64,000 bases of DNA from Escherichia coli. Lineage in GTDB: Bacteria; Pseudomonadota; Gammaproteobacteria; Enterobacterales; Enterobacteriaceae. The notes beneath the pieces were generated by a model. The model was not told the DNA's origin, searched no databases, and worked only from the letters and a program-made list of their open reading frames with translations. Below, one piece after another: positions 14,194 through 14,520 of this stretch; position 1 is the first letter of the stretch, and each line of letters begins with the position of its first letter. A program made the position numbers and the translations under genes. The stretch lies in NCBI RefSeq assembly GCF_003334765.1, contig NZ_QOWT01000008.1, one strand, 5' to 3'.

Positions 14194-14208
14194 ATGGTCT
14201 TCCTTTTT

Positions 14209-14250
14209 TTGCATCTTAATTGATGTATCTCAAATGCATCTTATAAAAAA
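14209..14250 (-). promoter_or_regulatory. hmp promoter/operator region (NsrR-type palindrome overlapping an FNR-like TTGAT-N4-nTCAA site)
   Basis: minus-strand aagatgcatttgagatacatcaa immediately upstream of hmp start, with tataag -10-like hexamer. Confidence 0.5.
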
Positions 14251-14520
14251 TAGCCCTGCAATGTAAATGGTTCTTTGGTGTTTTTCAGAAAGAATGTGAT
14301 GAAGTGAAAAATTTGCATCACAAACCTGAAAAGAAATCCGTTTCCGGTTGCAAGTTCTTTATTCTCCAAAGCCTTGCGTAGCCTGAAGGTAATCGTTTGC
14401 GTAAATTCCTTTGTCAAGACCTGTTATCGCACAATGATTCGGTTATACTGTTCGCCGTTGTCCAACAGGACCGCCTATAAAGGCCAAAAATTTTATTGTT
14501 AGCTGAGTCAGGAGATGCGG

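Follow-up and report, generated by a model that had tools for sequence, protein, structure and literature searches.

An NsrR operator with an embedded FNR box in the divergent hmp–glyA control region of Escherichia coli: quantitative notes on a known locus

The piece of E. coli chromosome analysed here (the window, 64,000 nucleotides in its full length) carries two divergent genes that are read from a common spacer. The gene hmp (hmpA), coding for the NO-inducible flavohaemoprotein, occupies positions 13003..14193 of the minus strand, and glyA, coding for serine hydroxymethyltransferase, occupies positions 14521..15774 of the plus strand; both are supported by their open reading frames, with translations that begin with MLDAQ and MLKREM, respectively, and by the RefSeq annotation of a collinear record. 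The hmp start codon is located at 14193..14191 (minus strand) and that of glyA begins at 14521 (plus strand), leaving a spacer of 327 bp (14194–14520), just as the first-pass annotation, made from the sequence alone, had described it. This control region has been mapped for decades and is present in RegulonDB; the feature considered here is the already-described control region of E. coli hmp, and both the observation made in the first-pass annotation and the interpretation given to it are upheld by the results that follow. A stretch of 521 bp around the feature is found as a single copy in all the 5,426 complete E. coli genomes, with an identity of at least 97.9%, and the 30 nt surrounding the palindrome that lies upstream of hmp are unchanged in 5,220 of these genomes. 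Elsewhere in the window, the open reading frame of yphH (ROK family, 15972–17171) is intact, with 399 amino acids; strain FORC 064 shows 100% identity across the hmp–glyA query, but its yphH contains an internal stop and is labelled a pseudogene in the annotation. Matches to Rfam families at the gathering score are GlmY (8688–8835), naRNA4 (37507–37578), the iscRS stability element (38295–38404), ryfA (45779–46082), IS128 (46214–46422) and sroE (59250–59341).

The conservation of the spacer was evaluated with loci retrieved from a one-genome-per-species collection of Enterobacterales by a degenerate DNA pattern for the N-terminus of Hmp. This procedure yielded 120 loci, from genera that included Escherichia, Salmonella, Citrobacter, Enterobacter, Klebsiella, Serratia and Yersinia, as well as Photorhabdus, Providencia, Proteus, Hafnia, Erwinia, Pantoea and Pectobacterium; the 111 loci with enough upstream sequence, together with the window, form the comparison set of 112 sequences. 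In all the 111 loci hmp and glyA are divergent, and the median length of the spacer is 327 bp, so that the arrangement noticed in the first-pass annotation extends to the related loci. A MAFFT alignment of the 112 sequences shows that the spacer is poorly conserved, with a mean information content of 0.93 bits, and that it contains islands of conservation. Two of these islands are the hexamers found by a promoter scan on the hmp strand, i.e., the -35 hexamer TTTACA (14262..14267, information content of 1.95 and 99% identity over the 112 sequences) and the -10 hexamer TATAAG (14240..14245, information content of 1.58), which are near-invariant and separated by 16 bp; an alternative register of the latter is TAAGAT (14243..14238). 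The Shine-Dalgarno sequence of hmp, AGGAAG, can be read at 14199..14204 of the same strand, within a weakly conserved block. The string aagatgcatttgagatacatcaa, quoted in the first-pass annotation as an imperfect palindrome overlapping a -10-like tataag, corresponds to the minus strand from 14242 to 14220. The overlap is real, given that this 23-mer and TATAAG (14245..14240) have 3 nt in common, and from there the 23-mer extends downstream.

The 23-mer conforms to the 11-1-11 architecture of an NsrR operator, AAGATGCATTT-G-AGATACATCAA (14220..14242, minus strand), which starts inside the -10 hexamer and covers the predicted start region. This site of the hmp promoter in E. coli is reportedly the subject of the work of Bodenmiller and Spiro (2006) and of Partridge et al. 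(2009). Among the NsrR 11-1-11 sites compiled by Mehta et al. (2015, PMC5320621), the sequence given for hmp does not differ in a single letter from the plus strand of the 23-mer, TTGATGTATCTCAAATGCATCTT. The window also agrees with Table 2 of that study in the half-site centres, located 44 and 19 nt from the hmp start codon; therefore, the site described for E. coli K-12 and CFT073 and the one described here do not differ, since the same 23 bp are found at the same distance from the ATG and next to the same divergent glyA, i.e., a single locus has been seen in different strains of E. coli. The published site received a PatSer lnP of -18.22 (cutoff -14.28), and a ChIP-seq peak was detected for it at glyA/hmp in strain CFT073, with an enrichment of 3.79-fold (PMC5320621). 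It has also been published that hmp is de-repressed in nsrR mutants.

Weight-matrix scans for NsrR, FNR, MetR and PurR sites had been suggested in the first-pass annotation as the way to evaluate its proposal. For NsrR, hmp was omitted from the training set, which consisted of the remaining 25 distinct sites given in PMC5320621 (Table 4); with this leave-one-out matrix, the hmp 23-mer scores 18.8 bits, which ranks first among the 63,978 positions of the window (per-position P of ~7e-7) and lies between the extremes of the training set (12.2–32.0 bits). The site is thus well above background, and the repression of hmp by NsrR that had been proposed is sustained by this rank, by the identity with a published ChIP-positive site and by the conservation across species described below. 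The two arms contribute very differently to the score: the arm over the -10 hexamer scores 15.4 bits, as against 2.9 bits for the ATG-proximal one. A second AAGATGCAAAA, which forms the direct repeat TGCATCTTA, is found in the 5'UTR of hmp (14207..14217, minus strand) and appears as a low-scoring entry in Table 2 of PMC5320621. This second AAGATGCA copy was considered as a third NsrR half-site and discarded; it scores 7.8 bits, a background value in a window that holds 129 matches of at least 7 bits with the half-site matrix, and it is not conserved (information content of 0.45 versus the mean of the spacer), hence it is probably non-functional. A separate weak match to the NsrR matrix, GCCATGAATTAAAAATTCCAGTT, is found at 1353–1375 in the divergent yfhH/pgpC spacer, with 9.7 bits, the sixth in the window. 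The gene pgpC (yfhB) was reported as a target of NsrR by ChIP in K-12 and CFT073, without a listed motif, and the published summit is ~180 bp from this match.

Across species, the best match to the NsrR matrix is found just upstream of hmp in each of the 112 sequences. The median score is 26.4 bits (range 17.9–31.1), and in most cases the end of the site is 25–28 nt from the ATG; in the alignment, the arm over the -10 reaches an information content of 1.68 bits. The lowest score of the 112 is that of E. coli and E. albertii (17.9 bits for E. coli), and the weakness resides in the ATG-proximal arm, for which the cross-species mean is 11.5 bits. This is mainly the result of a G at position 14, which costs ~6 bits, and of a terminal AA in place of TT, which costs ~5 bits. 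The low score fits with the modest ChIP enrichment of hmp, 3.8-fold, as compared with the 19-fold of grxD. The operator of ytfE, AAGATGCATTTAAAATGCATCTT, which is the best NsrR site of E. coli, has the same left arm as that of hmp and, like it, is of the 11-1-11 type; however, it is a near-perfect palindrome that scores 31.0 bits, and an FNR box is not embedded in it (-6.0 bits). The hmp operator of Salmonella Typhimurium, AAGATGCATTTGATATACATCAT (PMC10783083), resembles that of E. coli in its position, in the arm over the -10 and in the presence of an FNR-grade box (16.0 bits), but its ATG-proximal arm is far nearer to the NsrR consensus, and the total is 25.2 bits versus 17.9 in E. coli. The Salmonella/Citrobacter-type site recovered by the scan is the published NsrR target of S. 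Typhimurium (PMC10783083). Outside of E. coli, the operator over the transcription start is a layout also seen in Vibrio vulnificus hmpA, where the NsrR footprint extends from -2 to +18.

The ATG-proximal part of the NsrR operator contains an FNR box, TTGAGATACATCAA on the hmp strand (14220..14233), which lies wholly within the operator and has one mismatch to TTGAT-N4-ATCAA; on the plus strand, positions 14220–14233 read TTGAT-GTAT-CTCAA, which bears out the TTGAT-N4-nTCAA motif recorded in the first-pass annotation. The FNR site of E. coli hmp has reportedly been studied by Poole (1996) and by Cruz-Ramos (2002). With a matrix derived from the 63 sites bound in ChIP-seq experiments (Table S6 of PMC3688515, hmp not included), the 14-mer scores 16.6 bits and ranks first in the window (P of ~1.25e-6), whereas ~4e-4 such matches would be expected in the spacer, and it outscores 47 of the 63 bound sites with which the matrix was trained. 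The glyA/hmp site had been predicted in the same study, with a score of 14.39 and an lnP of -12.89 against a precision-recall threshold of -10.75 (PMC3688515 Table S6). The published 14-mer and that of the window are identical, and the purL gene contains another of the listed sites, which lies 8,072 nt from the hmp site both in the K-12 coordinates (PMC3688515) and in the window. In the comparison between the wild type and the fnr-deletion strain hmp is listed as 'Repressed' (PMC3688515 Tables S8 and S10); the value of 2.66 given for hmpA belongs to Table S12, which compares aerobic and anaerobic conditions, and not to the fnr comparison (Myers 2013, PMC3688515). Nevertheless, a ChIP-seq peak for FNR was not observed at hmp in anaerobic wild-type cells (PMC3688515), and the literature points both ways on the use of the site in vivo: it is predicted and the gene is FNR-repressed, yet the peak is absent. 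The FNR repression put forward in the first-pass annotation is therefore backed by a box that passes both the published threshold and the matrix of ChIP-bound sites, and by the regulation of hmp, with the missing peak as a reservation.

In contrast with the NsrR operator, the FNR box is confined to a few lineages. An embedded box at least as good as the weakest bound FNR site is present in 18 of the 112 sequences, corresponding to the Escherichia, Citrobacter and Salmonella types; this distribution repeats, with more genomes, the remark of Rodionov et al. (2005), who found the FNR site conserved in E. coli and S. typhimurium only. The NsrR and FNR scores are negatively correlated across species, with a Spearman coefficient of -0.51 that is confounded by phylogeny. 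A strict trade-off between the two functions was considered and rejected, because the Salmonella/Citrobacter-type site is high for both factors and the G14 of E. coli is suboptimal for both. Within Salmonella the FNR box varies, with 16.0 bits in diarizonae and in the published Typhimurium site (TTGATATACATCAT) and 3.7 bits in arizonae (TTTATATACATTAT); the NsrR site is good in S. enterica subsp. arizonae, in subsp. diarizonae and in Typhimurium.

The other half of the spacer contains the elements directed to glyA. Its PurR operator and MetR sites are said to have been the object of the work of Steiert (1990 and 1992) and of Lorenz and Stauffer (1995 and 1996). Two candidate MetR motifs can be read from the sequence, TGAAAAATTTGCA (14305..14317), with one mismatch to TGAA-N5-TTCA and an information content of 1.04, and the putative TGAAAAGAAATCC (14327..14339), with an information content of 1.22, separated by 22 bp; these values compare with a mean of 0.93 for the spacer, and the conservation of the first motif is moderate. 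In this case the scan that had been suggested fails to discriminate, since the MetR consensus TGAAnnTnnTTCA, with up to one mismatch, gives 33 matches in the window when 27 are expected; this result is at background and was discarded as evidence. Nonetheless, two tandem footprinted MetR sites have been published for the hmp–glyA spacer (PMC5002191, citing Lorenz & Stauffer). A motif equivalent to the first one, also with up to one mismatch, is found at the same distance from glyA (214–218 nt) in 43 of the 112 sequences.

The PurR operator, AGGTAATCGTTTGCGT (14387..14402), differs at three positions from the 16-bp palindrome of PurR, ACGCAAACGTTTGCGT, and has an information content of 1.69. Here the scan holds at the consensus level, with two matches in the window versus 0.62 expected. 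The half-site CGTTTGCGT is matched perfectly and is nearly invariant in the 112 sequences, where the half-site AATCGTTTGCGT stands 120–136 nt upstream of glyA. The binding of PurR at glyA is 'confirmed' in RegulonDB (footprint, site mutation and ChIP-chip), and the published PurR operator and MetR sites lie in this same spacer, where the PurR box is found at 14387–14402 and the MetR-like motifs are 22 bp apart. The sole other PurR-like match in the 64 kb is ACGCAAACGGTTTCGT (4393–4408), with two mismatches and located 77 nt upstream of the start of purL (4485); it looks like the known PurR operator of purL.

Downstream of the PurR operator, the promoter scan detected a -35-like TTGTCA for glyA (14411..14416, plus strand, information content of 1.18), but its pairing with a -10 is ambiguous, given that AATGAT, which the scan offered as its -10, lacks conservation, and the conserved hexamer TATACT (14444..14449, plus strand, information content of 1.80 and identity of 0.92 over the 112 sequences), which was read from the sequence, is 27 bp downstream of TTGTCA. 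The final 24 nt of the glyA 5'UTR, TGTTAGCTGAGTCAGGAGATGCGG (14497..14520, plus strand), with an information content of 1.60, are conserved across the 112 sequences to the same degree as the operators. This conservation exceeds what the Shine-Dalgarno sequence contained in it (AGGAG, 14510–14514) would need; hence, the end of the glyA 5'UTR may hold a translational control element or a target site for an sRNA.

From these elements, it is very probable that the spacer consists of two sigma-70 promoters that point away from each other and of the operators that accompany them, those of NsrR and FNR on hmp, and those of MetR and PurR toward glyA. The evidence obtained in this analysis consists of the identity with published sites, the motif scores, the positions and the conservation, and the literature contributes the in vivo occupancy by NsrR, the FNR-dependent repression and the binding of MetR and PurR.

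Since the feature was first noticed as a palindrome, it has to be considered if its symmetry carries any weight. The arms of 11 nt are complementary in 7 of 11 positions, a value reached by 1% of the positions of the window, so that a spacer of 327 bp should contain 3.3 of them; a generic repeat finder run on the sequence did not report the palindrome. The symmetry is thus at the level of chance and was set aside as evidence; what counts instead is how well the sequence fits the motifs of known DNA-binding proteins. On this ground one could argue that the 23-mer is an AT-rich near-palindrome that occurs by chance in a promoter and has no regulatory role, but this is extremely improbable: the best score of the 64 kb falls on this site with each of two independent matrices (NsrR and FNR), the site is kept in 112 of 112 sequences while the flanking spacer is not, and its occupancy was seen in published ChIP-seq experiments; the conservation and the ChIP-seq refute this reading. 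An RNA hairpin in the 5'UTR of hmp that acts on translation or stability, instead of a DNA site bound by a protein, could also be envisaged, given that the hmp transcript probably includes part of the 23-mer and a small hairpin of -2.4 kcal/mol can be drawn. However, the folding of three stretches was no better than that of shuffled sequences (z = -1.4, -0.6 and +0.6), the Rfam search gave only a spurious match to mir-67 (E = 0.65), and the limited complementarity of the arms adds to this; moreover, across species each arm approaches the NsrR half-site consensus and not pairing with the other arm. The z-scores and the absence of a real Rfam match led us to reject the hairpin, to which practically no likelihood can be granted.

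A more serious objection is that the 23-mer might be an operator for NsrR alone, in which the FNR-like box, a by-product of similar AT-rich half-sites, is not used in vivo, and the effect of FNR on hmp is indirect. In agreement with this proposal, the FNR peak is absent at hmp and the site was classified as one of 124 'silent' sites, with enrichment of Fis (PMC3688515); in addition, an FNR-grade box is restricted to the 18 sequences mentioned above, in line with the conservation seen by Rodionov et al. (2005) in E. coli and S. typhimurium alone. On the other hand, a box that surpasses most of the ChIP-bound sites is hardly expected by chance in the spacer, as indicated by the figures given for the matrix, and it is fixed in 96% of the E. 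coli genomes. Furthermore, hmp is the sole operon with a predicted FNR site among the 70 that were considered 'indirect', and the authors rated it as 'likely part of the direct regulon', citing in vitro binding (Cruz-Ramos 2002, in PMC3688515). The missing peak is equally explained by occlusion of the box by NsrR; as the operator of NsrR encloses the whole FNR box, the dimers of NsrR and FNR would have to compete, and this competition may explain why FNR was not detected by ChIP. Taken together, these data make an operator exclusive to NsrR unlikely, and a site shared by NsrR and FNR is the reading that we favour.

According to the model of a shared site, intact [Fe-S] NsrR would bind to the 23-mer as a dimer and, as we infer, exclude RNA polymerase from the promoter by steric hindrance. 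Nitric oxide would damage the cluster, NsrR would leave the operator, and hmp would be transcribed. Since the ATG-proximal arm of the E. coli operator also reads as an FNR box, FNR, active under anaerobic conditions, could use the same DNA; bound to these 14 bp, it would constitute a second repressor, sensitive to O2 and NO, so that the anaerobic repression would be relieved by NO. Further toward glyA, the MetR sites would act on hmp as well as on glyA in response to homocysteine, and beyond them the PurR operator would act from its position just upstream of the core promoter of glyA.

The combination in E. coli of the weakest NsrR operator of the 112 sequences with a strong FNR box that has been kept suggests that hmp may be only loosely held by NsrR, with FNR as a back-up. 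As a tentative proposal, which we consider possible although not the most probable outcome, the ATG-proximal NsrR arm would have decayed in the Escherichia lineage, FNR would be a lineage-specific anaerobic back-up for a gene under loose NsrR control, and the occupancy by NsrR would make the FNR site 'silent'. A few rare alleles are relevant in this regard, since they alter exactly the bases that discriminate NsrR from FNR (14229 and 14231 of the window; the strains include NCTC10444 and JNEC-KY204). The common sequence on the hmp strand, GAGATAC, carried by the 5,220 genomes identical over 30 nt, scores 17.9 bits for NsrR and 16.6 bits for FNR. The allele GAAATAC, present in 16 of the 5,426 genomes, reaches 24.1 bits for NsrR and 12.0 bits for FNR, and the double change TTTAAATAC (hmp strand), found in strain JNEC-KY204 only, gives 24.6 bits for NsrR and abolishes the FNR box (4.1 bits). 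A different kind of change was observed in E. coli strain 746 (NZ_CP023353.1), where a tandem duplication of 29 bp, TTTTTGCATCTTAATTGATGTATCTCAAA, in the 5'UTR of hmp (approximately 14205–14233 of the window), possibly an assembly artefact, leaves the FNR box and the ATG-proximal NsrR arm in two copies each. If the proposal of a lineage-specific back-up is true, these three alleles would shift the balance between NsrR and FNR.

Hmp is the main aerobic detoxifier of nitric oxide in enteric bacteria, and it also makes superoxide; because of the latter, a tight repression of hmp is needed when NO is not present. This role, together with the need for tight repression, makes the control region medically relevant. 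To the knowledge accumulated on this region, the present analysis adds only a quantitative footnote, i.e., that the NsrR operator is universal in Enterobacterales, that the FNR box is confined to particular lineages, and that the NsrR operator of E. coli is unusually weak. This weakness could matter for biosensors of NO based on the hmp promoter and for comparisons of the NO response between species.
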